Positions 4,105 through 52,105 of a stretch of 64,000 bases of DNA are shown here, in pieces. Position 1 is the first letter of the stretch. Each line of letters opens with the position of its first letter. Below the pieces are notes generated by a model that worked only from the letters and a program-made list of their open reading frames with translations, was not told the origin of the DNA and did no database searches. Origin of the DNA: a virus; the IMG/VR virus record IMGVR_UViG_3300035104_000006, positions 17,576 through 81,575 of that record; one strand, written 5' to 3'. The position numbers and the translations under genes are program-made.

Positions 4105-4368
4105 ATGGTAGGAAACTTAGATGATACTTTTGCCTTCAATAAAGCCATAGAGTCCTTAGAAGAGATAATTGAATTGCAAGAAGGGGCTGCTTTTCCATAC
4201 GAGGAAAGAACCCAAGAAGCTTTTAAAGAGGCCCTAAAAGCTTTTGAAACAGCCAGTACCTACGCTACTAGAATTTCCCGGTTGCTTAAAAAGGAAGACT
4301 ACGAAACTACGTTTCATACGCTTCTAGAAAGAGACTTAGCTGAAATAGAAGAACTATTTAATGGCTAA
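4105..4368 (+). CDS. hypothetical protein
   Basis: ORF track. Confidence 0.55.
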   Translation: MVGNLDDTFAFNKAIESLEEIIELQEGAAFPYEERTQEAFKEALKAFETASTYATRISRLLKKEDYETTFHTLLERDLAEIEELFNG

Positions 4369-4886: not shown

Positions 4887-4962
4887 GCGAGTGTAGTCCA
4901 ACGGCAGAGACAATGGACTTAAAATCCATAAAGTGAGGATTCGAATTCCTCCACTCGCACCA
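4887..4962 (+). tRNA. tRNA-Leu(TAA), short variable loop, encoded CCA
   Basis: GCGAGTG/CACTCGC acceptor, ATGGA-CT TAA AA-TCCAT anticodon arm, TTCGAAT T-loop, ACCA end. Confidence 0.9.
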
Positions 4963-5049
4963 ATTTTGTCCGTTCAATGTAGGACGGACACACTAGACTC
5001 CGTGACGCCTTCGAAGTCTAGCGCACAACAAAAGGCCGAGATAACAAAG

Positions 5050-5274
5050 GAGGCCATTATGAAATTCTTTTATTCAGTTCTTTTCACTCTGATGCTAACC
5101 AGCCAAGCTTTTGCATCAACTGCAGGACGTACAGACCACTCTGGGATTCTAGTGTGGGCGTTCCTAGGTTTTTGTGCTCTTATAGTAATGGCACAGATTG
5201 TACCTGCAATAATGATGATGGTTGGTGTTGGAAAAGCACTGCACAAAGATTCTACTGCTATTAGTGAGCAGTAA
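5050..5274 (+). CDS. small membrane protein with signal peptide, resembling a Geobacter/Desulfuromonas family
   Basis: AAGGAGG RBS before MKFFYS...; SGILVWAFLGFCALIVMAQIVPA motif. Confidence 0.6.
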   Translation, partial: EAIMKFFYSVLFTLMLTSQAFASTAGRTDHSGILVWAFLGFCALIVMAQIVPAIMMMVGVGKALHKDSTAISEQ

Positions 5275-5280
5275 CTACAT

Positions 5281-5310
5281 TGGGGAGGGGGTTAACCCCC
5301 CCCCATTTTT
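5281..5310 (+). terminator. intrinsic terminator
   Basis: G-run/C-run hairpin followed by TTTTT. Confidence 0.7.
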
Positions 5311-5333
5311 ATATAGCATTAAAAATTTTGCTC

Positions 5334-5362
5334 TTGACGCGAGGGTGGATTTTTAGTATTAT
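5334..5362 (+). promoter_or_regulatory. sigma70 promoter (divergent copy)
   Basis: TTGACG-17-TATTAT with A-rich upstream. Confidence 0.6.
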
Positions 5363-5403
5363 ATAAGAATAATAAATAAAGCTATCGACTAGGGGGATCC
5401 TTA

Positions 5404-6033
5404 ATGGAAAAGAATATAGTTGTGAGTTTGTTTGATTTCACTGGAGGAATGGTAGAGCCTTGGATGGATGCAGGGTATGAATGTTGGATAGTTGATATAC
5501 AACATCCGGAAGGTATCACTAATCATAAAAATCTTAATAAAGTTAATTTCGATTTATCCGAGCCTTGGAATCCCCCTTTTGACAAAGAAAAAATAGCATT
5601 TATTTCAGCATTCCCCCCATGTGATCATTTGGCTGTTAGTGGGGCAAGATGGTTTAAAGGGAAGGGGTTAAGAAAACTTGCTTATAGTATAAACTTATTT
5701 GCAACCGCTGCTGAGTTTTGTGAACAAAGTGAAGCTCCTTATATAATAGAAAACCCAGTAAGTACTATATCTACTTACTGGAGAAAACCTGACTACATAT
5801 TTCACCCCCACGAGTATACAAAATATTTCCCTGAGGATAATTATACTAAAAAGACATGTCTTTGGACAGGGAATGGTTTTAATATGCCTGAGCAGCTTAA
5901 AGATGAGACATTACCTGCACCAGATACTAAAAAGATACACCACGCTTCACCTAAAGATAGATCAAATATGCGAAGTATAACACCTGCCGGTTTTGCATGG
6001 GCAGTATTTGAAAGCAATAAAGCTACCGAATAA
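5404..6033 (+). CDS. short phage C5-cytosine DNA methyltransferase (Dcm-like)
   Basis: SLFDFTG (motif I), AFPPCDHL (catalytic PC), IENPVS (motif VI). Confidence 0.75.
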   Translation: MEKNIVVSLFDFTGGMVEPWMDAGYECWIVDIQHPEGITNHKNLNKVNFDLSEPWNPPFDKEKIAFISAFPPCDHLAVSGARWFKGKGLRKLAYSINLFATAAEFCEQSEAPYIIENPVSTISTYWRKPDYIFHPHEYTKYFPEDNYTKKTCLWTGNGFNMPEQLKDETLPAPDTKKIHHASPKDRSNMRSITPAGFAWAVFESNKATE

Positions 6034-11926: not shown

Positions 11927-12700
11927 ATGAAAGTTGAGGCTATGAAGGAAATTATTCCACCTACAAATTGCCCAGAATGTAGCAGCAATCTACTATGGGT
12001 CAATGACCAGTTATACTGTAAAAATTCGAGCTGTCCAGCTAGAACATTGAAAGCTCTACAGCATTTTACTAAAACTGCGAAGATAAAGGGGTTAGGAGAG
12101 GCTTCTCTTCTAAAACTGGAAATTAATAGCATAGTGGAGCTTTATCAACTTTCAAAGCAAGACTTTATTGATGCTTTAGGTGAGAAAAATGGTATTAAGT
12201 GTTATAATGAGTTGGAGAAATCGAAAAAACTTCCCCTCAACATGCTTTTACCAGCTTTCAATATTCCTTTAATTGGTAATACCGCTTCTAGTAAAATCTG
12301 TTCTAAAGTTTCACATATCGATGAAATAACAGAAAGCTCTCTTAAAGACGCAGGAATCGGACCGAAAGCATCAGCAAATTTGTTAAACTGGCTTAATAAA
12401 GTATATAAGCCAATGTATGAGAATATTCTACCGTTTGATTTTAAGTCATCCAACGTCGTAGAGACTAACACTGAGGACTCCAAAGGTACAGTTTGCATAA
12501 CAGGAAAGCTTAAGACTTTCAAAACCAAAGCGGAAGCAGAGCAAGCTCTACATAATAACGGATACTCCACAGTTCCTAGGATGACGAAAGCAGTAGATAT
12601 TCTAGTCAATGAGAGCGGAATTGAATCCGCAAAAACCGAGAAAGCCAGAGAATCTGGCGTAACTATTGTTACAAACCTTAACCAACTTTTAGGAGACTGA
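11927..12700 (+). CDS. NAD-dependent DNA ligase, subunit B (Zn finger, HhH, BRCT)
   Basis: PTNCPEC...YCKNSSC, IKGLG, IPLIG, VCITG BRCT; T5 split-ligase arrangement. Confidence 0.88.
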   Translation: MKVEAMKEIIPPTNCPECSSNLLWVNDQLYCKNSSCPARTLKALQHFTKTAKIKGLGEASLLKLEINSIVELYQLSKQDFIDALGEKNGIKCYNELEKSKKLPLNMLLPAFNIPLIGNTASSKICSKVSHIDEITESSLKDAGIGPKASANLLNWLNKVYKPMYENILPFDFKSSNVVETNTEDSKGTVCITGKLKTFKTKAEAEQALHNNGYSTVPRMTKAVDILVNESGIESAKTEKARESGVTIVTNLNQLLGD

Positions 12701-12705
12701 TTAAA

Positions 12706-13443
12706 ATGGCAAAAACTACACAAAAATGGACTGAAGAGCGCACTGCACAACTTACTAGTATTTTTCCGGAAGGAACATATGTTACTCAGGAAGATGTAGC
12801 AAAAGCTGCTGACGCTCTCGAGACCTCTGCTCGCTCTGTATCTAGTAAACTTCGTAAACTGGGCTATGATGTTCAGTTGGCGTCCGAAGTAACTAAAGGC
12901 AAAGCATTTTCAGAGGAAGATGAAGCTAAGCTTAAAGAGCTGCTAACCAATAACCAGGGAACTTTTACCTACGGTGAACTTGCAGAGCAGCTTGGTGGAG
13001 ATTTCACCGCTAAAAAAGTGCAGGGTAAAGTTCTTAGTATGGAACTTACTGACTATGTACGCCCTACTCCGAAAGTAGAAGCTGCTAAAAAGTATACAGA
13101 TGAAGAGCAAGCTACTTTTGTACAAATGGCGCAAGCCGGTGTTTGCATTGAAGAAATCGCTGAAAAACTTGGCCGTGCAACAAACTCCATCCGTGGCAAA
13201 GCTCTTAGTCTTCTTCGCTCAGGGGAAATTGATGCTATTCCTAAGCAGAAAGAATCTAAAGCAGCTAAAGCTGTTGACGCTCTCGCAGACCTGGGGGATA
13301 AAGTAGCGGAGATGACTGTAGCAGAGATTGCAGAAGCTATTGGGAAGACTGAGCGTGGTGTAAAAACAATGCTTACTCGTCGTGGTATTTCTGCCTCTGA
13401 CTATGACGGTGCTGCTAAAGCTGAGAAAAAAGCAGAAAAGTAA
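12706..13443 (+). CDS. D5: T5 D5-like DNA-binding protein
   Basis: Repeated HTH units (ARSVSSKLRKLG, SIRGKALSL, RGVKTMLTRRG). Confidence 0.75.
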   Translation: MAKTTQKWTEERTAQLTSIFPEGTYVTQEDVAKAADALETSARSVSSKLRKLGYDVQLASEVTKGKAFSEEDEAKLKELLTNNQGTFTYGELAEQLGGDFTAKKVQGKVLSMELTDYVRPTPKVEAAKKYTDEEQATFVQMAQAGVCIEEIAEKLGRATNSIRGKALSLLRSGEIDAIPKQKESKAAKAVDALADLGDKVAEMTVAEIAEAIGKTERGVKTMLTRRGISASDYDGAAKAEKKAEK

Positions 13444-13452
13444 TTGTATTAT

Positions 13453-13478
13453 AGGGAGGGGGTACTTTGCCCCTCCCT
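13453..13478 (+). terminator. GC-rich hairpin, probable terminator/processing site
   Basis: AGGGAGGGG...CCCCTCCCT. Confidence 0.55.
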
Positions 13479-13500
13479 GCCTTAAATCGGGGAGCCTCTT

Positions 13501-14865
13501 TTGAATATAACACAAGTATTTCTTAAAAAAGTTATATCAGAGGTGGATTCTGACACTTGGGTACAGGTAAGGCCTCACTATCTGCCTGCTGAATATCACA
13601 GTGTTTATAAAATTATAAATAAATACTTTGAAGACCACAGTAGGCTTCCTTCCTTTGATGCACTAAAGCTCTCCGTCAGAAGCGATGTTGTATTAAATAA
13701 AATATATGCTATATCTTTAGCAGAGGATGTTGACTTACCAAACTCCGAACTACTGGAGTATGTAAAAAATCAATATGCTCAAGAGGAGATTTTAGACCAA
13801 ATATCTAAATATCTTGAAGAGTCTATAATGATAGATTCTGCTAAAGATAATATAACCCACCTTTCAAATATAATTGCTCATGTCGAAGATAGGGTTGATA
13901 TGAAAGACCCGGAGGAGGACATGAACAGAATAGAGTTATTTGATTCCGAGGAAGACCTTAGTAAAGCATTCTCACTTGGGTTGAATTCTGACTTTGACTC
14001 TAAATTTAAGTTCGGCTGTACCGATTATATACTTATTGGCGGTGTTAGAGGTACGGGTAAGTCCCTTACTTGCTCTAATATAGCTGTCCATGCATATGAA
14101 CAGTTGCAGCGTTCTTCAATATATTTCACAATAGAGATGACACCTAGGGCTGTACTACAGCGTAACTGTGCTATAGCTACAGGTATTCCAGCCTCTAAAA
14201 TGCGAAGCAAAACTTTATCAGTAGAAGAATGGCGTATTGTTGCTAAATGGTGGTCTGGTCGCTTTACTGATGGAGAAAAGGCTTATGAAAAATACCTACA
14301 ACATCGTAGTTTTGACGAACTACACGGAGACTTATCTAGGCTTCCTCTTTTAGAAGAAAAACAACTTGATATCGTTTACGATCCGTCTATGACGCTAGCA
14401 ACGATAAGGAGCGAACTTGATAAAAAGGTAGAGCGATTAAAACCTGCCGTTATCTTAGTGGACTATGTCAACCAAGTGAGTAGATTTGGTCATAGAAAAA
14501 TGGGGCAATATGACTGGACAGAGCAAATTGAGGTGTCTAAAGCTCTTAAAGCCATTGCTCAGGAGTATGAAATTCCTGTAGTGTCACCATACCAAATTGA
14601 TGCGACTGGGGAAGCTAGATTCGCGAAAGGGTTGCTAGACTCAGCGGATGCGGCTTTCACACTAGACGCACACAAGAAAGAAGACGAATGCATAACTTTT
14701 AAATGTGTTAAGATGAGAGATAACGAAGAGGTTGATTTTACTTCTAAAATGAATTGGTCTACATTGAAGATGGGGCCTGAACCAGCACAACTACCGGAAA
14801 AAGAAACAAAAGAGAAATCTTCAAAATCTAATAATTCCACTGGGGAGGATGTCTACGATTTATAA
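13501..14865 (+). CDS. DnaB-like replicative helicase
   Basis: GGVRGTGKS Walker A, ILVDYVNQ, PYQ, ARFAKG. Confidence 0.9.
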   Translation: MNITQVFLKKVISEVDSDTWVQVRPHYLPAEYHSVYKIINKYFEDHSRLPSFDALKLSVRSDVVLNKIYAISLAEDVDLPNSELLEYVKNQYAQEEILDQISKYLEESIMIDSAKDNITHLSNIIAHVEDRVDMKDPEEDMNRIELFDSEEDLSKAFSLGLNSDFDSKFKFGCTDYILIGGVRGTGKSLTCSNIAVHAYEQLQRSSIYFTIEMTPRAVLQRNCAIATGIPASKMRSKTLSVEEWRIVAKWWSGRFTDGEKAYEKYLQHRSFDELHGDLSRLPLLEEKQLDIVYDPSMTLATIRSELDKKVERLKPAVILVDYVNQVSRFGHRKMGQYDWTEQIEVSKALKAIAQEYEIPVVSPYQIDATGEARFAKGLLDSADAAFTLDAHKKEDECITFKCVKMRDNEEVDFTSKMNWSTLKMGPEPAQLPEKETKEKSSKSNNSTGEDVYDL

Positions 14866-40796: not shown

Positions 40797-41077
40797 TTAT
40801 TCCTTTCAAGTATTCGGTCTATTGTTTTTTCCACATTTGCAACTCGTGATTTACAAACTTCTTGATCGGCTGTTATTTTTATTAATGTTGTGTTGAGATT
40901 TATTCCTATTGTTATGGCTGTGGTGGTTAAGATGATTATCGCACCACCTAGTATTCTCATAAACCAAAGATTTGCCTTATGTCTAGTTTCAAGAGTGTTT
41001 AGCCTGATTAGAACATCAGTGTGCTGAACTCCGCAAAACTGATCGTAACTGTTTTCACTATTATTCATAGACGACAA
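40793..41077 (-). CDS. single-TM holin/XhlA-like membrane protein
   Basis: C...H...RL..LE, one TM segment, RVANVEK tail. Confidence 0.5.
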   Translation of the reverse strand: MSSMNNSENSYDQFCGVQHTDVLIRLNTLETRHKANLWFMRILGGAIIILTTTAITIGINLNTTLIKITADQEVCKSRVANVEKTIDRILERNN

Positions 41078-41676
41078 CCTCCGTCTGATTGATCATCTTC
41101 GAGATCAGACGCGTCAGTTATTATTTTCGGCTGTTTTCTTGTTTCAGATATAGATTCTGAATGGATTTCTTTTGTATTAGAGCCGGAGCTTAACCAATCA
41201 CCGAAGTTTAAGTTTATATTCGCTCCTGCATTTGGCTGGCTTTTTTGTTCTACGATTCCGGCATGGCTAAGGACGAAATGGCTTTCCTTCAAATCACCGC
41301 CTTCTACTGCATTTACTACATTGGTAGCCGCAGTGAGCACGGACTCATTAAGCAAGTTCTTCGCCTGTTCTGCCATTGATAGTTGTGAATCTTCAATTCT
41401 CTGCATGACTCTTGGGTCGCGAGATACGATTGTTATAAGCTGGCTGGACAGTCCGAGTTGTCTGGCTATGTCAATTTTCTTATATCCCACAGCTAGCATA
41501 TCGGCTATAGTCTTATTTCTTTTCGACAACGGCTGATTAGGATCAGAAATATATGTATGACCGAATTTAGTCTTAGCTATTCCACTTTCAGATACTTCAT
41601 ACTCTTCTCCGTAGAAATCTTTGCACAAGGCTTTTCTTGCCTCGCTTGTCGCTTCTGCTGATTCTGATCTTGCCAT
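41065..41676 (-). CDS. terminase small subunit-like HTH protein
   Basis: GYKKIDIARQLGLS HTH, AVEGGDLKESHFVL, INLNF tail; first gene of leftward operon. Confidence 0.5.
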   Translation of the reverse strand: MARSESAEATSEARKALCKDFYGEEYEVSESGIAKTKFGHTYISDPNQPLSKRNKTIADMLAVGYKKIDIARQLGLSSQLITIVSRDPRVMQRIEDSQLSMAEQAKNLLNESVLTAATNVVNAVEGGDLKESHFVLSHAGIVEQKSQPNAGANINLNFGDWLSSGSNTKEIHSESISETRKQPKIITDASDLEDDQSDGGCRL

Positions 41677-41808
41677 GACGGTAACTCCTTATGTACTTTG
41701 TTTTTTATAATTATCATGATTATCCTTGATTATGTTGGTTTTCGATTATGAAGATAGGCTAGCATGACTAAGGAGTATTTGCAAGATAGTTTAGATGGGT
41801 GGATTTAG

Positions 41809-42026
41809 TTGACGGAATAAGTAAATAAATAAATAAGTAAGCGTGGCATAAAGGAGGTGTGGAAAATTTATAAAAATTGAAAAAGAGAGATTTACTAATT
41901 TGATTATATGTATTTTTAAATATATAAATATTCATATATAATAATTGATTATTTAAACAGTAAATTTCTTTTCCTTTTTCTTTCTCAACCTATCTTACCC
42001 CTACGCTTATTTACTTATTTATTAAC
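41809..42026. repeat. imperfect palindrome 1 with (AAAT)n/(ATTT)n arms
   Basis: AATAAGTAAATAAATAAATAAGTAAGCGTGG ... CTACGCTTATTTACTTATTTATT; purine-rich left arm, pyrimidine-rich right arm. Confidence 0.8.
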
Positions 42027-42230
42027 TTAATATGCCAATCTCTCTGAAATAATTAAATAAGTAAATAAATAAGTGTTTGGGCTATAGATTAACGGAAAAT
42101 TTTCAGAAATATTATGTAATCCTGACTAAAAAGGTAGGGTATTTAAAAATTGCTTGGGGAATTACATGGTGTCAGAACCCCACCCGCTAATCTCCGCTTA
42201 ACTTTTTTGGGACCCAATGCCGATGTCGAA

Positions 42231-42250
42231 CATGTTTCACGTGAAACATG
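42231..42250. promoter_or_regulatory. perfect parS site (TGTTTCACGTGAAACA) in a 20-bp palindrome
   Basis: Exact match to the chromosomal ParB/Spo0J consensus. Confidence 0.85.
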
Positions 42251-42380
42251 CCGGAAACGATAGCATTAAAGGAAAATAATATTTAACCTGGTAGACCTGG
42301 TACGGATATTGCTGAGCCCGAATTAATACACACCTGAATGAACGAGGAAGAAATAATTGAACTAATAGTACAATTTTTAG

Positions 42381-42409
42381 TTGACAGGGATGAAGATAGT
42401 TGATAGATT
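42381..42409 (+). promoter_or_regulatory. sigma70 promoter
   Basis: TTGACA-17-TAGATT. Confidence 0.7.
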
Positions 42410-42460
42410 GTATTTAACAACGATGAGGAACACTAACTAACAACCGAAGGGAGAACAATC

Positions 42461-42973
42461 ATGGAAACTAAAACAATTACAGCGGTACGGCATGAAAAGG
42501 GAACAAAGGTTGTTAAGTACTCCACAAGTATTACTGGAGTACCGACAATAGGTTGTCTGGTCGATTGGATAATGGAGAAGGGGGTGCACGAACAAGTATT
42601 GTCTGCCTTGATACGCCAGGCTGAGCAAGTGGCGTTGGGTAGGTGCGCCAGCGCGGATAGTGCAGGACAGGAATTGCCAGAAGAACAGGATTTTTATCAA
42701 TTAATTACTGGCACGGGAACTGGGCGATTCTCATACAAAAAAGCAGCGGAACAGCTGCAAGCTAAAGTCGATGAGCTGCAAATAGAATATAACAAGCTTA
42801 CGCAGCTAGCAATGGCAGCACTAGCCAGTGGAGACACTGAGACTGCTACAATACATGGGAATACTGCGAACAATATTATGCAGAATATCCAGGCAAAGCA
42901 GGAAAAAATTGGAGAACATCTGGCCGCTCATGCTGAGCAGCAAGAAAAGCGGAAGGCAGCTAAACGGGACTAA
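42461..42973 (+). CDS. isolated hypothetical protein with C-terminal coiled coil
   Basis: Own promoter, GGGAG RBS and terminator. Confidence 0.75.
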   Translation: METKTITAVRHEKGTKVVKYSTSITGVPTIGCLVDWIMEKGVHEQVLSALIRQAEQVALGRCASADSAGQELPEEQDFYQLITGTGTGRFSYKKAAEQLQAKVDELQIEYNKLTQLAMAALASGDTETATIHGNTANNIMQNIQAKQEKIGEHLAAHAEQQEKRKAAKRD

Positions 42974-42983
42974 TTCGCTTTCT

Positions 42984-43025
42984 AAGGGGCGTACATGTCG
43001 GATTCGATATGTACGTCCTTTTTTA
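42984..43025 (+). terminator. intrinsic terminator
   Basis: GGGCGTACATGTCG-gatt-CGATATGTACGTCC followed by T run. Confidence 0.8.
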
Positions 43026-43585
43026 TCTTGAAAGGCATTCTAGCATGAAAAATGAAAGCGATAGAGGGCATACCGTACATATGAACGGGGAAACCACACG
43101 GTGATAGCAAATGGATACCAGAAACTGATTAAAAAGAGGGAGACAAGATATGTGGTATCATATTAAAACTGCAATATATGAATTTTTAGTTCTGTACGGT
43201 CTGGCTCAGGTCTGGATGATCGGCATGATCTATATCCTGGAATGATCATACCTGTCATATCCGTAACCATCCACCCGTTATCGGCTGAAATATCGCCTGT
43301 AGCGGGTTTTCTTTTGTCCAGCCATGCCCTAGCCTTATCCTGACATTTCATCCCCTCAAATCGGCTCTCATTGGCTCTTGAACAAATAATTGTTCTTTAA
43401 ACTACAGAATAGGTCTTGAATTAAAGATCGTTCTCGTAAATTAAGCGTTATTTTGTAACAAATAGATTTGCCTAAATTTTAGGCAAGGTTTGGAACCGGT
43501 ATTGTTGAAATGCAGCCTCCAGCGTGTCCAGAATGCCGTGTATTGCATTTTTTCATGCCCGGCAATACCAGGGACGGTCTGTATC

Positions 43586-43951
43586 GGCGTTTTTCAATCA
43601 TAGAGCCGTTTAGGGGCAATTAAGCGTTAAATAAATAAATAAATAAATAAATGCCCGGGTAAGGTGGATTTAAAAAGAAAGAAAAATTTATATTAAAACT
43701 GAAATAATAAAAAAACTGAAAAAAATAATAAAAAAAAGAAAGAAAAAATTAGAATTAAAATTGGATTAAAAAAAAATTAATAAAAAGAATAAAGAATTAA
43801 AATATATAAATATATATATATATAAAAATCAATATAAATAAATTCCTTAATCTAATTTTTTCTCTTTTTCTTTCTTTTTTCCTGCTTCTTACCCTACCGC
43901 TTATTTATTTATTTATTTATTTATTTATTGACCGCCAGGATTGAAAATGCC
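43586..43951. repeat. imperfect palindrome 2 (~365 bp) with (AAAT)n arms and (TA)n centre
   Basis: GGCGTTTTTCAATC...(AAAT)n..GGGTAAG...TATATATATATA...CTTACCC..(ATTT)n...GATTGAAAATGCC. Confidence 0.85.
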
Positions 43952-44046
43952 ATAAAATCAGAATGATTCCGGTATCTTAGAGAATCGAACGAACATTCTA
44001 AACCTAAATCTGAACAAACATTAGACGTTTATAACTACGATTATCG

Positions 44047-44075
44047 TTGACAGTATGAGGGTGTTTTGTTAGTTT
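44047..44075 (+). promoter_or_regulatory. sigma70 promoter of the right-hand early region
   Basis: TTGACA-17-TAGTTT. Confidence 0.65.
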
Positions 44076-44132
44076 TACAGCATGACGAAGACAAGAGAAG
44101 GTATCTTTTAACAAGTAATGGAGGGATGAACG

Positions 44133-44360
44133 ATGAAGAACAGATTCAGAATTAGTGGAAAACTAAAAGTAATAGAGCGGATGAAGAATTCGAGAAACGG
44201 CAACCCACGGTATAAATTTACCGTAGGCGACTCATTGCCTATAGTAACTAGAATTGATTCTAGTTATGGATATGAAATAACTAATCATGATGGTAAGCCT
44301 GTTATTGCAACCGTGGGCTATCATTATGGCAGACTTACACTTAATAATTTGGAGGGATAA
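44133..44360 (+). CDS. conserved phage early protein
   Basis: NSRNGNPRY...T..DS.YGY motif; GGAGG RBS. Confidence 0.65.
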   Translation: MKNRFRISGKLKVIERMKNSRNGNPRYKFTVGDSLPIVTRIDSSYGYEITNHDGKPVIATVGYHYGRLTLNNLEG

Positions 44361-44363
44361 ACG

Positions 44364-44608
44364 ATGAAAACGATTAGTTATTATATAAAGCTGCATGAAC
44401 TAGGGGGAAATTAAGAAGTACTTTCCCAGAGATTAAATTCACCTACAATAGTGATGCGAATATATGGCTAACTGAACGGAAGGAGGATATAGAGATCTTA
44501 CTCGATATGTTTGAGTATCGTGATGAGTGGAAAAAACTACTAGATGTTCCTGATCTTATTATATTCTCCCACGATTCGGATTATTGGTTCGGATTTACTT
44601 TAGATTAA
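44364..44608 (+). pseudogene. ORF broken by two +1 homopolymer indels (G5 at ~44403, T3 at ~44422)
   Basis: GGAGG RBS; removing one G and one T gives an open ~80 aa frame MKTISYY...YWFGFTLD. Confidence 0.5.
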
Positions 44609-44699
44609 ATAAAATAGCAGTATTAATGCCGAAAATATTATGTTAAACAAAAAAAAATACATTATTCCGGATTATCTAATTTAATAAGGAGACTCAGTC

Positions 44700-45005
44700 A
44701 TGAAGCAAACAGTCACTAAAAGTATGTTCGTCGATGCATTCCAGGATATCCGCCCGGATAATTTCAGCCATAGCGGATTATCTGCTATGTATGACTATCT
44801 AAATGATTATGAAAGAGAGACAGGTCAAGAACTTGAGTTGGATGTTGTAGCAATTTGTTGTGACTTTTCAGAACATAACAATATTCTGGAGCTAGCAAAA
44901 GAGTATGGAGAAGAGTTTGACAACACAGCGGATGCACTAGAATGGTTACGTGAAAACACAATAGTAATAGAACATCCTAGTGGCATAATTATTCAGGACT
45001 TCTAA
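44700..45005 (+). CDS. conserved acidic phage early protein
   Basis: MKQTV...F.DAF...NFS..GL..YDYL..E...ELELDVVAICCDFSE family. Confidence 0.7.
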   Translation: MKQTVTKSMFVDAFQDIRPDNFSHSGLSAMYDYLNDYERETGQELELDVVAICCDFSEHNNILELAKEYGEEFDNTADALEWLRENTIVIEHPSGIIIQDF

Positions 45006-45061
45006 ACAGATTATCAGAGCACTACAGAATAATAGCTCTGTAGTGTTCTAATAGACTGTTT
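45004..45061 (+). other. long intergenic hairpin (family copy 1)
   Basis: ~25-bp stem; TTATCAGAGCA...GTGTTCTAATA. Confidence 0.7.
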
Positions 45062-45091
45062 AATCCATCATCACCAACAAAAAAGGAGTAA

Positions 45092-45340
45092 ATGATGAGT
45101 AAAAGAATGTACAACCTACCTAAAACAAAAGTGTACGAACTATCTATCACTAAACGGGATATTTTTGGCTATCGACAAAGCAACCAGACTATCCTTGTAC
45201 CTAAACACATATTACCAGACTCCGACCGGTTGGCCCTTGAAGACAAATATGGGTATCGGTATGCCCGGGATATATCCTTAGAGTATGATCTGAGCACTCG
45301 CAGAGCAATCGTACCATACTACATTTTTAAAATTTACTAA
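45092..45340 (+). CDS. hypothetical protein
   Basis: AAGGAG RBS. Confidence 0.55.
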   Translation: MMSKRMYNLPKTKVYELSITKRDIFGYRQSNQTILVPKHILPDSDRLALEDKYGYRYARDISLEYDLSTRRAIVPYYIFKIY

Positions 45341-45351
45341 GGGGAATTACT

Positions 45352-45543
45352 ATGTACGATTCAAGAATGAGAATTCAAGAAAAGGATTATCAGGCAATTA
45401 AACGCGGAATACTGGAACTGTTGAGGATGAATGGAGTAACCTTTAACGAAGTGAGTAATCACATATCTTATGTAGAGGATAAGGACTTGGCTACAACGAA
45501 TTTCCTTATAGATATTAAATCAGGAGGGATCAGTCATGCGTAA
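45352..45543 (+). CDS. hypothetical protein
   Basis: ORF track, RBS. Confidence 0.5.
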   Translation: MYDSRMRIQEKDYQAIKRGILELLRMNGVTFNEVSNHISYVEDKDLATTNFLIDIKSGGISHA

Positions 45544-45877
45544 AATTGAACAAGAAATGATTGTAGCTGTAGAAGATAACTCTAACTGGAGTAGAAGCAA
45601 TACTTGTGTTCTTTCTGAGGATAGAGAGTATCCAGGATTTATCCTCTTGTATGGCAATAAAATTATGGAGTTTGAAATTGATCCGTTAACTGGGAAATAC
45701 ACCATAATGTTCAATTTCTGCGGATGGCAGACCAACACTACTAAATCAAGAATTAACGCCATTCTCTCACATTTCGGTCTTGGCTATGTTTTCCAGAAAA
45801 ACTATAACCTGTATTATGTCAATTCATCAGGAAAAGAGTTACAGATAAGCAATAGTGAATGGATTGTAGCAGAGTAA
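45536..45877 (+). CDS. conserved phage early protein (GWQTNTTKSRIN family)
   Basis: MRKIE..M...NW...NT.V...LYGN.I...GWQTNTTKSR.NA. Confidence 0.7.
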   Translation: MRKIEQEMIVAVEDNSNWSRSNTCVLSEDREYPGFILLYGNKIMEFEIDPLTGKYTIMFNFCGWQTNTTKSRINAILSHFGLGYVFQKNYNLYYVNSSGKELQISNSEWIVAE

Positions 45878-45926
45878 TGTTTTATCGGAGCATATCTATA
45901 ATATAGATGTGTTCTAATAAGACATT
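45876..45926 (+). other. long intergenic hairpin (family copy 2)
   Basis: TTATCGGAGCA...GTGTTCTAATA with a different but paired upper stem. Confidence 0.7.
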
Positions 45927-45959
45927 ATCGTTCACCCATTCCAGAGAAGGGAGAGTATC

Positions 45960-46259
45960 ATGAAACCAATTGTTTATGATTTAATTGTAACCCGTCATCC
46001 TGCATTGCTTGACTTGATAAAAGAACTCGGTCTAGCGGATGATAGCACGCTAGTTATTAGCCATGCCGATGTAGAGAATGTATCCGGTCGCCACGTGTTA
46101 GGAGTACTCCCTCACCACCTATCCTGCCACACAATCACTTATTCTGAAATAGTTCTATCCATACCAGAACATCTACGCGGAAAAGAACTTGACATTCATC
46201 AGCTCCGCCGTGCATATCGTGGCATAAATACCTACGTGGTTAACAAATTAAATAACTAA
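45960..46259 (+). CDS. Csx16 (VVA1548)-like protein
   Basis: VTRHPAL...SHAD...V.GVLP.HL...L.IP..LRGKEL...L matches my recall of the Csx16 pattern. Confidence 0.65.
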   Translation: MKPIVYDLIVTRHPALLDLIKELGLADDSTLVISHADVENVSGRHVLGVLPHHLSCHTITYSEIVLSIPEHLRGKELDIHQLRRAYRGINTYVVNKLNN

Positions 46260-46274
46260 AAAGGAGGTAGTATT

Positions 46275-46526
46275 ATGAGTAATCTGCATAGTAAGCAGAA
46301 ACTGGCAAATATTATTGCCCGTCGTGCCGGATATTCCAGGGCGACAAAAATAGTTATCGGTGATGATAATAAAGTAGTTCGTCACGTTCCATTCGGCTAT
46401 CGTAAATTCACTACAAATGAGTACGTACCGAATTCCTATCGAAACAATTTCGGCTGGAAGAATACCTATTATCAATCTGCAATTACCGAAGTTATGGTAA
46501 TGGAAGGGAGTTTTAGTGATGAATAA
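46275..46526 (+). CDS. basic hypothetical protein
   Basis: AAGGAGG RBS. Confidence 0.6.
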   Translation: MSNLHSKQKLANIIARRAGYSRATKIVIGDDNKVVRHVPFGYRKFTTNEYVPNSYRNNFGWKNTYYQSAITEVMVMEGSFSDE

Positions 46527-46830
46527 TGAATCTGGAATTATTTTATTGATTGATTCACGGAATGGAATTCATATACCTAAAATATTCAAAAAACTATGCT
46601 TGTCCGGTGGCTGGAGAGTTCCAGGAATTACTAGCAGAGACCTATCTATTCTCGACAATCTAGAGCATGAAGAATACTGGGATGTCTGGGAGTATGTACT
46701 CGATAATGCTGAATATATCAATAGTTCCGGTGATAAGTTCACTCTATATCAAGACGGTGATTTATGGGCGTTATGTCTGAAGCTAATGAACGAGTATGAA
46801 AAACACGATTTTTTCGGGGAGGATGTGTAA
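46516..46830 (+). CDS. conserved phage early protein (LYQDGDLW family)
   Basis: DSRNGIHIP..F...W..V..NA...LYQDGDLWA. Confidence 0.65.
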   Translation: MMNNESGIILLIDSRNGIHIPKIFKKLCLSGGWRVPGITSRDLSILDNLEHEEYWDVWEYVLDNAEYINSSGDKFTLYQDGDLWALCLKLMNEYEKHDFFGEDV

Positions 46831-46832
46831 TT

Positions 46833-47138
46833 ATGGATCAGTATGATTTACAAAGAATTCGAGAAAGAGTTAACAAACTGAATAAAAACCCATCAACAAT
46901 GCTTCAGGCGATAAAGATAACTAGAAAATTGCATATAATCTCAGAAGAAGAGGGTGTACCCTACAGTTTGCTTATTGAAGGTGAAGTATATCCAGGATGT
47001 CCATTGTGTAGAATGAGTAATGATTGCTCGTGGAATATTTTTGAAGGAAGAACTTGCTCTTTAATTGAATACAAAGACAATAAAAGAAGTATAGAACGAC
47101 TAACAAGATGGATTGATAAAATAGAAAAAGGAGAATAA
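46833..47138 (+). CDS. hypothetical protein (CPLC...C..C)
   Basis: GGAGG RBS. Confidence 0.55.
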   Translation: MDQYDLQRIRERVNKLNKNPSTMLQAIKITRKLHIISEEEGVPYSLLIEGEVYPGCPLCRMSNDCSWNIFEGRTCSLIEYKDNKRSIERLTRWIDKIEKGE

Positions 47139-47274
47139 GTTATGAACGATATTTACAATGAAGTGTTAGATAACTCTGTTTCTATTCTTGACGATTTACT
47201 AGCTACTGATGAGGATAATATTGGGGAGCGAATTTATTACTATCCAAGAGAAAACAATATGGAGGATATAGATA

Positions 47275-47577
47275 ATGAAACATTGTATTTTGAACAGTAA
47301 GAATATTAGTAAGATAAAAATACTAACTTATGACGGTCTTACAAAACGTGAGAAGAGCATTGTATGGAAAGAATCTTTTCGCGAGCAGCTCCAGTATTTT
47401 CGATACGCCGGAAAACTGTTTGTCTACTCTTTCATGCCTAGTACTGCCGGAATTGACGAGCTAGACAATTGGCAATATATGAAATATCTTTCCTACACAT
47501 CCGGAATCGTTGTCAATCCACATCCGAAACATGACGGATATCTAGCCATAACGAGGTTTTCACTATGCAAGAAATAA
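47275..47577 (+). CDS. hypothetical protein
   Basis: GGAGG RBS. Confidence 0.55.
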   Translation: MKHCILNSKNISKIKILTYDGLTKREKSIVWKESFREQLQYFRYAGKLFVYSFMPSTAGIDELDNWQYMKYLSYTSGIVVNPHPKHDGYLAITRFSLCKK

Positions 47578-47611
47578 CGATAATTCCGCTAATAATCGCA
47601 TTCATCGAGGT

Positions 47612-48196
47612 TTGTATATTATGAAAATTCAAACAGTTATAGTATCAGCATGTACCGGCGTACTTATCGGATCAGTGTATATAAACAATGTGCAGTGCAA
47701 TAAACGAATTGACGAGTTAAACAATCACTGGAAAACTGCACATGAACAATGTCTTTCCAATTCCGTGAGAATTTATGATAAGTTTCAGGATAGAAACGAA
47801 CTTCTCTCATCTATTCTAGGAGTAGACACAACAGATTATCTTGCCTTTTCCTTGCCTGTAAGAATTACAGCATACTCGGCAAACGAGCAAGAATGTGATT
47901 CTAGTCCAGAAAGAACGGCAAGCAATAGTCTGTCACGAGTAGGCACGGTCGCCCTCAGTCCAGATATTCGGCAAGACCTGTCAATAAGTTATGGAGATAA
48001 AATAATTCTCTATCAAGACAATTCCTGCCTCGGAGTATTTTCTGTGGAGGATTCAACTAGTACATATAAACATAAAAATACAAACTCACCGAAGCCGATA
48101 ACTAGAACGGTGGATATAATGATGGGAAATCGTACCGCTGCAAAAGAATTCGGCGTACAGTCTGGCAAACTCGTACTTATCAAAGAAAGAATATAG
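47612..48196 (+). CDS. 3D/RlpA-like domain cell-wall protein with N-terminal TM
   Basis: ITAYS...TAS...VALSPD...YGD.I...VEDS...VDIMM. Confidence 0.65.
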   Translation: MYIMKIQTVIVSACTGVLIGSVYINNVQCNKRIDELNNHWKTAHEQCLSNSVRIYDKFQDRNELLSSILGVDTTDYLAFSLPVRITAYSANEQECDSSPERTASNSLSRVGTVALSPDIRQDLSISYGDKIILYQDNSCLGVFSVEDSTSTYKHKNTNSPKPITRTVDIMMGNRTAAKEFGVQSGKLVLIKERI

Positions 48197-48201
48197 CTAT
48201 T

Positions 48202-48591
48202 ATGGATCAAAGACTGCTATCACTTGAAGAAATTCCAGCGTTTATGTTAAGAAAATTGCTAATAAATGGGTATTTTCTCGATCATGATTGTATTGACAAT
48301 CCTAGTCAACCTGCTGTGTTTAATAACACGTATTTCTACCTCCGAATGCTCGAAAATTCTAATCTGGAATTTGAAGAAAATTATTTCACTGTGCAAATGT
48401 CAGTGAAGGAAACATTCGACCGTTGGGCGAATTCTGTAGATATTGTTTTTGACACCCATTTGCCTAACGAGTTTGTATGCGAAAACGTTATAATGGATTA
48501 TATCCAAAGGAAACTAGAGGATGCAAACTATATCATTGAAAAGTTAGGTACAGGATTGTTTAATAACGGTTATTTTCAAATAAGCATGTAG
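48202..48591 (+). CDS. hypothetical protein
   Basis: ORF track. Confidence 0.55.
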   Translation: MDQRLLSLEEIPAFMLRKLLINGYFLDHDCIDNPSQPAVFNNTYFYLRMLENSNLEFEENYFTVQMSVKETFDRWANSVDIVFDTHLPNEFVCENVIMDYIQRKLEDANYIIEKLGTGLFNNGYFQISM

Positions 48592-48606
48592 AAAGAAGGT
48601 GAAGCC

Positions 48607-48894
48607 ATGCTACATTATAAACTAGAAGATGATCCGAAATATTGCGCAGCCAGGGCGGAAATACTTACCGACCTGCACGATAAAATACAAGCACTCTGTC
48701 AGCTACATGGCACAAATGTATCCAGGTTGTCATGTGATATCGGAAAAAGTCATAGTTATCTTTATCAAGTATTTAAAGGTGAAATGGGACTATCAACAAA
48801 AACATTATCAGACATTGCGACGAAATTCGGGCTGCAAGTGGAGGTAAATTTTATTGATCGAAAAATACCACTGGAGGATATTATTGGAGAATAA
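48607..48894 (+). CDS. XRE-family HTH protein
   Basis: NVSRLSCDIGKSHSYLYQVFKGE...S..TL..IA. Confidence 0.75.
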   Translation: MLHYKLEDDPKYCAARAEILTDLHDKIQALCQLHGTNVSRLSCDIGKSHSYLYQVFKGEMGLSTKTLSDIATKFGLQVEVNFIDRKIPLEDIIGE

Positions 48895-48981
48895 TGAAGT
48901 AAAGCAATTACTAGCAGATGTAATATTCTTGCTGTTCGGATCAGTGCTTATGAGAATTATAATTTTATTAGGAGAGAATAA

Positions 48982-49173
48982 ATGGATTTGATTATTTATA
49001 AAACTGTGACGATAAATTTTATTGTATGCTTCACACTAACCCTATTCACAATAACCAGTATGACTACAGAGGAAATAAATAAATCAAAATGGATTACTAT
49101 TCTATCCATACACATGTGGATAACAATCCTCTCATTACCAATCACACTAATTTATTGGGTAGTTACTTTTTAA
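48982..49173 (+). CDS. small two-TM membrane protein
   Basis: Hydrophobic, AGGAG RBS. Confidence 0.5.
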   Translation: MDLIIYKTVTINFIVCFTLTLFTITSMTTEEINKSKWITILSIHMWITILSLPITLIYWVVTF

Positions 49174-49320
49174 CTAATAATACGATTATTCTTGACAGAA
49201 TGGTCTTTAATATGATATGGTGGCTTTAACAAATAACATAAGTCTTTCTTAATAAGGTGAAATTTCTACTGATTTCTTTTACGACCCTTGTTTGCAGATT
49301 AGTGTATAAGGAAAATTATT

Positions 49321-50402
49321 ATGTGGAAATGGAAAGAAGTGACAAAGATAAAACTATGCTTTTTCGACTTCGATAGCGAAAATGGAGATTATTCAGTCTT
49401 CCTAGACAACCCAATCCTTCACGTGGATAGTACGGGCAACAAGGAGGATTACCGAATCTTCAGGCTTTCAGAGGCAGACCTATTTAAAATTGAATGTAAT
49501 TGGATTGAAATTAATTACACAAAACTTGACGATACCGGAGAGATTTACGATAAGTACTATAATTTCTCTGATGTGCCTAAGAATATTCGGGATGAGATAA
49601 TTCTCGTTCTCCAGGAGTATATAAACAATCTGGACTGTCGAGCAGATTGGGAAATAGTCGGTTCATACTCAGAAAGGAAAAATAGTTATGTTAAGCGATA
49701 AATTAGTAAAAGCCGTGCTTTGGGAAATATCTGAATTTATCTATTGTTCAGATAACACATCAGTGAATAAAATATTAGTACAAACAGTTGTGACAAGAAT
49801 TTCATATAATTACAAACTAGCCTACTGGTTTATAGATTTTAACACAAACAATGAAGAAATAGGTCTAGTATCGGTCTGTGGAGAAAGTATTGAAATATGT
49901 GTGAAGAATCTGGTGAAAGAAGTTTCTAGTAATGGCTGATTATATCATAATTCTAGCGAGCGGGTTGACGATAGGTTTTATGATATTCGTATTAACTTTA
50001 AGTAGTTCTATGAATCAGGGCTATCAACAAGGTCAAATTGATTATGCTAATGGTAAAGTATTAATTCACAAGGTTGAAAATGAAGATAATGAATTAGTTT
50101 GGAAATGGATTGATGAACCTAAGTACGATTAAGGAGATTAAAATATGAAAACAACTGATACCTTTGCTACATGGAAATGTGAAAAGTGCGGTAATACTTA
50201 TAGTAGTTCAATAGAGTATTGCCCTAATGATGGGTATAGTCTACAAGAAGGAATTAAGAGTATTCTATTTGAGCAATTAAAAGAGGTTAAGATAACCAGA
50301 ATAGATGAAGTGTTTCCTGATAATGCTCATAATAGCTTTCATTATCAACCATACGATGAAGGTGTTGTTAGTATACATTACATTAAATCTAAGAATGTGT
50401 GA
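49321..50402 (+). CDS. run of four small hypothetical ORFs (49321-49701, 49688-49939, 49932-50132, 50145-50402)
   Basis: Coupled ORFs in track. Confidence 0.55.
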
Positions 50403-50412
50403 GGATTGAAAT

Positions 50413-50920
50413 ATGAATGAACAATATGAAAAAGAACTGAACACTTTACGTAAAAGAATGGAACAAGCAGAAGAATTTGCTGAGAAATTTCCGCATTTTG
50501 CTAATATAATTATTTCAAACAAATATACTATACAAGATAATTGGGTTCGTCTTTCTAATTTTTACAAGAACATGCCCTTTCCTTGGGGGTATAAATCGTG
50601 GTTATTTTAATAGTAATACTGATCGCAACATTAATAATTACGAAAAACCACATGATTGCTATTTGTGGAATATTTATATTAACACATTAACTTTGTATAA
50701 TAAACATGTGAATTTTGGTTTATATGATATAGTCAATGATGTTGATGTGTTTTTCTTAGATAAAGCTAATTCGACTTTTTATGCTACTGATGATCAAATT
50801 ATTCCCTTGCTAGATAGACTAGTTGAATGGTATAATGGTGTTTCAGATAAACTAAAAGAGTTCAATAAAAATAAAAGAATAAACGAATTAAAGAGGGAAT
50901 TAGAAGAATTAGAGGGATAA
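50413..50920 (+). pseudogene. single ~168 aa gene split by +1 G in a G5 tract (~50585)
   Basis: Removing one G joins PFPW-GINRGYF...CYLWNIY into one open frame. Confidence 0.6.
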
Positions 50921-50923
50921 ATC

Positions 50924-51691
50924 ATGTCTATTTACGTAACAGGTGACTTCCATGGTAGTATGGATATCAAAAAAATTAGTAGTAAAAATTGGTCTGAAGG
51001 TAGGAAACTAACTAGCGACGATTTCCTAATCCAATTAGGAGATTTTGGTTTGATCTGGGATAAAATAGGTTGCAAGAAAGATAAACAACATAATCACTGG
51101 AGAAATTGGTTAGGTGAGAAATCATATACATTTTGTTTTGTAGATGGTAATCACGAAGGATATACTGAACTAGAACAATTCCCAATTGAACATAAGTTTG
51201 GTGGGAAGGTAAGAGTTATTCCTACTGATAATAAACCACTATATCAATTACTAAGAGGTGAAGTATATAATTTTAATGGTCATAAATGTATAGCATTAGG
51301 AGGAGCTGAAAGTCAGGATAAACAATGGCGTATACCTGATGTGAGTTGGTGGAAACAAGAAAACTGGAATCATGCCGAAACAGAATATATTATTGATCAA
51401 ATACAAGCTAATCCTAATATAGAATATGTGTTCGCCCACACTTGCCCTGATAGCATTAGTTATGAAATTCTAAGGCATGTTGGTGCTACTAGTGCTGGTA
51501 CTTATAAAGAGTATTATGAAGGTAAGTGTGAATGTCAGGTGGCTAGGGCTATGCAAGTATTAGTTGATGAATTTGATCTGAAGCCTAAAGAATGGCATTT
51601 TGGACACTGGCACCTTGATTGTTTTGTGACTGAGAAGGATGGTGTTAAGTATCAATGTCATTATAACCATAAACCAACAAAAGTGATATAA
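50924..51691 (+). CDS. calcineurin-like metallophosphoesterase
   Basis: GDFHG, GDFG, DGNHE, AHTCP, FGHWH. Confidence 0.88.
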   Translation: MSIYVTGDFHGSMDIKKISSKNWSEGRKLTSDDFLIQLGDFGLIWDKIGCKKDKQHNHWRNWLGEKSYTFCFVDGNHEGYTELEQFPIEHKFGGKVRVIPTDNKPLYQLLRGEVYNFNGHKCIALGGAESQDKQWRIPDVSWWKQENWNHAETEYIIDQIQANPNIEYVFAHTCPDSISYEILRHVGATSAGTYKEYYEGKCECQVARAMQVLVDEFDLKPKEWHFGHWHLDCFVTEKDGVKYQCHYNHKPTKVI

Positions 51692-51805
51692 TGAAACATC
51701 TTTTTAGAATATCAACAAAGAAGAGTAATGTTTGGTCTAATGTAAATCTCAAACCAGTTTATTATGTAGCTACAAGTAAAGAAGCAGCTTCAGAAAGGAT
51801 AACCG

Positions 51806-51979
51806 ATGCAATGCCCTCAATGTGAAAAAGAGACAGAGCATAGACACGTACACGACTGCATACATGGTCTACCCTACTGTCACATGGCGGATAGCGAGCG
51901 GTATGAGTGTCTTGTATGTGGTTATGCAGTTTATAAACACGTGGGAGAGCAGCAAGGATTAAAATACATCTTGGATTAA
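51806..51979 (+). CDS. small zinc-ribbon protein (57 aa, not in ORF track)
   Basis: Hand translation MQCPQC...ECLVCG. Confidence 0.55.
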   Translation: MQCPQCEKETEHRHVHDCIHGLPYCHMADSERYECLVCGYAVYKHVGEQQGLKYILD

Positions 51980-52105
51980 CTGGAAAATACATTTGGAGGC
52001 TGCTAAATTTTGTGGATATTGAAATGAAGAACTAGAAAAATTGGTTGTTGGATTAGATTATCTAAAGTCATCTACTATAAAAACGGTAATAGAAGGAGAT
52101 TAAAC

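Follow-up and report, generated by a model that had tools for sequence, protein, structure and literature searches.

Genomic setting of the Csx16-family gene

At positions 45960–46259 (+ strand) of the analysed stretch of viral DNA (hereafter the window; 64,000 nucleotides) lies a gene for a 99-amino-acid (aa) protein of the Csx16 family. From its profile matches, its AlphaFold2 (AF2) model, and its dN/dS, we regard the gene as a candidate phage cyclic tetra-adenylate (cA4) ring nuclease directed against type III CRISPR. The reading frame is intact and starts with ATG, and a Shine–Dalgarno motif (AAGGGAG; 45947–45953, + strand) can be read from the sequence six bases 5′ of the start codon. The window spans bases 17576–81575 of a 114,484-bp IMG/VR virus record, which is linear and estimated to be 87 per cent complete. 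The record encodes a DnaB-type helicase, a DNA polymerase, further helicases, SbcC, a ribonucleotide reductase, and two PhoH-like proteins, and it also carries tail proteins and two tRNAs. Its DNA polymerase is approximately 45 per cent identical to the polymerases of T5-like Vibrio and Aeromonas phages. The stretch is found in oil-field metagenome runs and is identical in contigs of three of them, two of which are possibly its source; there is no RNA run among the sequencing runs that carry it.

The Csx16 gene belongs to a same-strand run of 21 mostly small open reading frames (ORFs; median length 95 aa), which starts at 44133 and is preceded by a divergent non-coding intergenic region. As far as the sequence goes, this layout is compatible with early or accessory genes, where ‘early’ is read from gene order only. 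A promoter scan returned 40 sites against the 47.6 expected from shuffled sequences; with no excess over shuffles, the scan is therefore silent on early timing. Ten neighbouring ORFs matched no informative Pfam or PHROG family. The upstream neighbour (45536–45877, + strand) is a member of the Kyano_Gp96 family (PF23790, E-value 2.1e-24; phrog_554) and adjoins the Csx16 gene in the same order in the contigs of a sister phage (L002–L004; see below). We treat this neighbour solely as context for Csx16.

The first-pass annotation of this DNA had described the gene as phage-borne with no cas genes nearby, and this description holds, with respect to Cas10, across the entire virus record: the Cas10 models TIGR02578 and TIGR02577, both of which were positive in control genomes, match nowhere in its 114,484 bp. 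Neither a CRISPR-like repeat array nor an RtcB gene was found in the record. A Csx16 gene without a type III CRISPR–Cas locus alongside is expected for a viral copy. The missing locus touches the label ‘CRISPR-associated’ and leaves the homology of the protein untouched.

Membership in the Csx16 family

The 99-aa protein contains all three motifs from which a relationship to Csx16/VVA1548 had been proposed, namely, T11-R12-H13-P14, G48-V-L-P-H-H-L54 (G.LP.HL), and P69-E-H-L-R-G-K-E-L77 (P..LRG.EL), and the proposed likeness is borne out, far beyond chance, by both Pfam and PADLOC profiles. Pfam family PF09652 (Cas_VVA1548/Csx16), the only family that Pfam lists for this protein, matches with an E-value of 5.1e-16 and a score of 59.1 bits (gathering cut-off, 25), and the match extends over profile positions 2–90 of 91. 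The PADLOC Csx16 model PDLC01635 matches with an E-value of 1.8e-14, and three further Csx16 models match as well; E-values of 8.2e-11 and 1.8e-10 are among those obtained with the PADLOC Csx16 models, and the C-terminal Csx16 part of the PADLOC model of a CARF-HEPN-Csx16 fusion matches with an E-value of 3e-7.

The comparison with TIGR02620, the model that the first-pass annotation had singled out for Csx16, gave a divided outcome: the match is full length (E-value 3.2e-7), but its score of 30.5 bits lies under the cut-off of 46.35 bits. TIGR02620 is an NCBIfam equivalog-domain model and is stricter than PF09652. The score below its cut-off therefore marks the 99-aa protein as a real but divergent member of the Csx16 family. 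Identity to named Csx16 entries is only 22–38 per cent, and PHROGs contain no family for the protein. Its membership in the Csx16 family is close to certain.

Conserved residues, fold, and predicted dimer

A search of 1.84 billion representatives recovered homologs in 854 clusters at an E-value of at most 1e-3 and in 290 clusters at an E-value of at most 1e-10, and residue conservation was assessed in an alignment of 164 homologous domains taken from the 150 top hits. The phage protein agrees with all columns that are at least 90 per cent conserved among these domains (T11, R12, H13, L16, V46, G48, L50, P51, L54, G74, and L77), and H35, E63, R73, E76, and Y92 are likewise present; because the hits are those nearest to the query, this alignment is biased toward the query's own branch. 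The conserved polar residues (His, Arg, and Asp/Glu) that are regarded as consistent with ring nuclease activity are thus among those found in the phage protein, and the Pfam and PADLOC Csx16 profiles, which match over the full length, point the same way. Retention of putative catalytic residues is read from conservation.

The AF2 model of the 99-aa protein (pLDDT 94.7; pTM 0.82) has five strands (residues 8–10, 31–33, 45–48, 60–66, and 86–92) and flanking helices, as in a derived Rossmann or CARF-like fold. The structural resemblance to Csx16 that would follow from the first-pass annotation was recovered: the 13 best AlphaFold-DB clusters are all Csx16 (E-values from 3e-10 to 2e-4; TM-scores of 0.62–0.82), and the list of matches falls off sharply after them. 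Foldseek searches against PDB and against the BFVD viral structures returned no match at an E-value of at most 0.001. The sole matches in profile comparisons with PDB sequences were DARPin/ankyrin designs, which we rejected as spurious, as they sum weak G-x-x-P-L-H-L-A-like repeats of which each stretch has an E-value above 40.

In the AF2 model, strands β1, β2, β3, and β4 are each followed directly by conserved polar residues. To judge from the secondary-structure string, the ligand site would lie there, at the place where Rossmann-like and CARF folds bind their ligands. A homodimer is predicted with a score of 0.71, compared to 0.01 for the best of three controls; in calibration, 21 of the 30 solved homodimers but none of the 23 solved monomers scored this high. 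Contact agreement among the homodimer runs is at least 96 per cent, the partner pLDDT is 89, and the predicted interface consists of residues 52–56, 60–63, and 90–97. The model, which is a prediction rather than a measurement, supports the pairing of two subunits into a homodimer that would form the cyclic oligoadenylate site.

A sister phage with a divergent allele

In a collection of 5.8 billion proteins, the 99-aa protein has only two close relatives. One of them, which is 81 per cent identical, sits on three metagenome contigs that have the same gene order as the window and approximately 85 per cent nucleotide identity to it. This sister ortholog (P0002; L002, positions 5213–5512) is also 99 aa long, occupies the same genomic place, and in contig L002 is likewise preceded by the AAGGGAG Shine–Dalgarno motif.

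Between the two sister phages, Csx16 is under purifying selection, with an NG86 dN/dS of 0.16. The pN/pS ratio is 0.10 for codons 41–99 and 0.33 for codons 1–40, and synonymous change is about twice as high in codons 1–40 (pS = 0.76) as elsewhere in the gene (pS = 0.36). This raised synonymous divergence in codons 1–40 suggests that the 5′ part of the gene is mosaic or recombinant. Differences of the sister allele are concentrated in codons 12–40, and they include changes at five sites that are conserved in the family (R12H, L16M, G24E, H35Y, and A36P), whereas the window allele has none. Therefore, the enzymatic function is maybe not strictly required in this lineage, and the function of the sister allele is possibly altered, as far as can be read from its substitutions.

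The two phages also differ immediately upstream of the gene. Between the hairpin described below and the Csx16 start, the sister contig carries approximately 180 bp of extra sequence (L002, positions 5020–5196, versus positions 45939–45959 of the window), and the ribosome-binding-site stretch GGAGAATATATC is repeated at either end of it. The difference looks like the gain or loss of a small gene via recombination between the repeated ribosome-binding-site sequences.

Relatives on other viruses, on plasmids, and in cellular genomes

A pattern scan of IMG/VR, based on a small alignment, identified at least 41 viral records with relatives of the protein at 30–53 per cent identity, while a scan with the single protein as the query retrieved no relative from IMG/VR. 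Among these 41 records, 10 are at least 90 per cent complete, 6 have terminal repeats, and none gives a Cas10 score above the cut-off. The neighbourhoods of the IMG/VR relatives have nearly no genes in common in an all-against-all comparison. In columns outside the search patterns, H35 is found in 39 of 45 relatives, R73 in 42 of 43, and G74 in 39 of 43, and E76 is kept as well; the counts for T11/R12/H13 and G48/L50/P51 in the IMG/VR loci are partly fixed, because the search patterns used these residues.

Against 50,697 GenBank phage records, tblastn searches with the 99-aa protein and with a central family member found nothing, and a DNA search of these records with the region was also without a match. 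It follows that this lineage either differs from those of the catalogued phages or is missing from them; the oil-field Csx16 lineage has been seen only in metagenomic viruses.

Two phage-like contigs place relatives beside recognizable genes. In contig L007 (6300–7974), a 161-aa relative with 57 per cent identity and an N-terminal extension has a gene for the RNA ligase RtcB immediately 3′ of it. Judging by this adjacency, the L007 pair could combine removal of the cA4 signal with repair of RNA that was cut by cA4-activated RNases. In contig L056, a Csx16 relative is located between ERF/SSB and NinG genes. Plasmid relatives were found only in Deinococcus proteolyticus pDEIPR02 (L054, positions 12001–12285) and Allomeiothermus silvanus pMESIL02 (L055, positions 11998–14013). 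Both of these Deinococcota copies occur among small ORFs together with SSB, ParB, and Rad52, with no annotated cas gene in the stretches shown, and the pMESIL02 copy is annotated as a protein of approximately 670 aa whose N-terminal portion is the Csx16 domain.

The scan of cellular genomes yielded two loci in metagenome-assembled genomes (MAGs) only and used narrow patterns, so that cellular counts cannot be compared with viral ones. Of 401 Bacteroidota genomes sampled, the Bacteroidia MAG G042 was the only one with a Csx16 match, and the sample provided no CRISPR-linked copy. In G042, two Csx16 genes lie 3 kb from each other on a 5-kb contig (C794; L052 and L053), and Cas10 is encoded on another contig. 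We also observed that many of the top-scoring relatives of the phage protein (P0004, P0017, P0020, and P0034 among them) are approximately 200 aa long and contain the Csx16 domain twice in tandem, as fused pseudo-dimers.

Comparison with known ring nucleases

Csx16 was earlier predicted to be a ring nuclease from its conserved His, Arg, and acidic residues and from its fusions to Csx1. The first-pass annotation had described the family as a cA4 ring nuclease, correctly so, as this activity has been confirmed experimentally: the Csx16 that was tested degraded cA4 completely at a 100-fold excess of substrate in a buffer with EDTA and was specific for cA4, leaving cA3 and cA6 intact even at 10 uM (Hoikkala et al. 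2025, Philos Trans R Soc B, PMC12409355). The same study counted Csx16 in 68 type III loci and in 2 of 28,114 cultured phage genomes. The family, its enzymatic activity, and the existence of phage-borne copies are thus already in the literature.

The phage protein shares with cellular Csx16 the full-length domain, the conserved residues, the predicted five-stranded Rossmann-like fold, and the predicted dimer, and it may have, like the Csx16 family, a weak structural link to AFV3-109/Crn2. It differs from cellular Csx16 in being encoded by a phage with neither Cas10 nor an array, in scoring below the TIGR02620 cut-off, and in its low identity to the named entries. With the two cultured-phage copies (PMC12409355), it has in common that it is a stand-alone Csx16 on a phage and presumed to be an anti-CRISPR. 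A parallel is found in Crn4b, which also belongs to a cellular type III ring nuclease family whose copies on mobile elements have been proposed to be anti-CRISPRs; Crn4, however, has an unrelated novel fold and a broad specificity, degrading cA3, cA4, and cA6 (Chi et al. 2025, PMC12830947). [quoted passage not shown] 2020, as cited in PMC12830947 and PMC12409355). Unlike AcrIII-1/Crn2 (DUF1874, PF08960), the phage protein has no sequence match to PF08960, and at an E-value of at most 0.01 this family matches nowhere in the whole virus record.

Proposed function

We propose, with a probability of roughly 0.7, that the phage gene encodes a cA4 ring nuclease with which the phage counters type III CRISPR. 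Conservation and the modelled fold make the enzymatic competence of the phage Csx16 probable. An anti-CRISPR role is suggested by the location of the gene, by the recurrence of the domain on mobile elements, and by analogy with AcrIII-1. In the proposed mechanism, the phage would produce a stand-alone Csx16-type ring nuclease, in which two 99-aa subunits of a small Rossmann-like (CARF-like) fold would pair via strand β5 and helix α3. A pocket at the two-fold axis would be lined by T11-R12-H13 (after β1), H35 (β2), G48-L50-P51 (β3), and R73-G74-E76 (β4), and it would bind cA4, the second messenger made by type III Cas10 upon detection of phage RNA. The dimer would then cut cA4 without a metal into linear products with 2′,3′-cyclic phosphate ends, as demonstrated for a cellular Csx16. 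Once cA4 is gone, the cA4-dependent CARF and SAVED effectors of the host would stay silent, and the phage would therefore escape type III immunity. For this particular protein, we infer the binding and cleavage of cA4, the geometry of the pocket, early expression, and the anti-CRISPR effect.

An alternative that keeps the protein an antagonist of type III CRISPR is that the dimer acts as a cA4 sponge, which sequesters the messenger without cutting it or with negligible turnover. Such a role has been suggested for Csx15, a related protein that has nearly no ring nuclease activity (PMC12409355), and the alterations of the sister allele at R12, H35, and other sites, together with the strong constraint on its C-terminal two thirds (pN/pS of 0.10), form the pattern that a binder no longer needing catalysis might show. 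The window protein, however, has all of the conserved His, Arg, and Glu positions, and the single Csx16 tested is a true multiple-turnover cA4 nuclease (PMC12409355), which leads us to consider a sponge improbable. We give slightly less credence to a different cyclic nucleotide target (cA3, cA6, or a CBASS or Pycsar product), through which the protein would counter another signalling defence. For Csx20, cA3 becomes a further substrate when the enzyme is highly concentrated (PMC12409355), Crn4 accepts three substrates, and at 22–38 per cent identity to the named Csx16 entries, the phage and plasmid branch could have shifted its specificity. Against such a shift stand the strict cA4 specificity of the tested Csx16, still maintained at 10 uM (PMC12409355), and the ligand-facing conserved columns, which are unchanged in the window protein.

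A role outside defence, in which the protein might be a small nucleotide-binding factor that regulates, for instance, phage metabolism or RNA handling and would have only the fold in common with Csx16, appears a little less probable again. It would suit neighbouring genes that have no assigned function, but the whole conserved surface is kept and the only known ligand of the family is cA4. Moreover, the domain turns up repeatedly in phages and plasmids that are unrelated to each other, within variable accessory regions that have nearly no common neighbours, a pattern typical of counter-defence genes. Least probable of all, and in our view very improbable, is that the gene was captured recently as a passenger and is silent or decaying. 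The strong divergence of the 5′ third of the gene between the sister phages could be read in this way, but the frame is intact and has a good ribosome-binding site, dN/dS is low, the position of the gene is conserved in a sister phage at approximately 85 per cent nucleotide identity, and the gene is identical across several samples.

Phage ring nucleases disable all cA4-dependent effectors together and thereby shape which hosts type III CRISPR protects; AcrIII-1 is the only phage ring nuclease demonstrated to act so. The gene described here is a clean, short, and intact candidate from a large lytic-type phage, and the natural variant in the sister phage could reveal the residues that are important. 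The gene strengthens the case that Csx16-type anti-CRISPRs are widespread among uncultured phages and plasmids and introduces no new principle. A wider reading, which we hold to be unlikely, is that phage and plasmid Csx16 proteins form a large anti-type III family, accompanied by an arms race in the oil-field lineage. In this reading, the changes in codons 12–40 of the sister allele, next to the nearly frozen codons 41–99, could mean that a nuclease turned into a sponge or that the ligand changed. The family would be nearly invisible in cultured-phage databases, given that relatives occur in at least 41 IMG/VR records and that GenBank phages gave no tblastn match.

Intergenic hairpins and repeats

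The long hairpin that had been noted just ahead of the Csx16 gene is confirmed as a stem of approximately 25 pairs at 45874–45928 (+ strand), with an RNA folding energy of −32.5 kcal/mol (z = −6.35 relative to shuffled sequences). It begins right at the stop codon of the upstream gene. In sister contig L002, the top of the stem is altered and pairing is preserved (positions 4933–4983). A second intergenic hairpin of the window (45003–45062) has the same frame, TATC[AG]GAGCA ... TG[TC]TCTAATA, with a different stem top; both hairpins begin at the preceding stop codon and have no T-run. Hairpins that share this frame may be RNA processing or attenuation sites. Rfam has no family match within positions 41000–52000, and an identity as an integron attC site was rejected in a comparison by eye, in which the features do not fit.

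Two further elements were observed at a distance from the gene. A strong terminator-like hairpin at 42984–43021, with 17 pairs followed by a T-run, lies directly 3′ of a lone ORF (42461–42973) and inside the divergent control region 5′ of the small-ORF block. Upstream of the window, genome positions 4127–4300 contain three copies of the 15-mer ATAGTAGGATGTACG at spacings of 72 and 90 bases, which may be a promoter or operator repeat.
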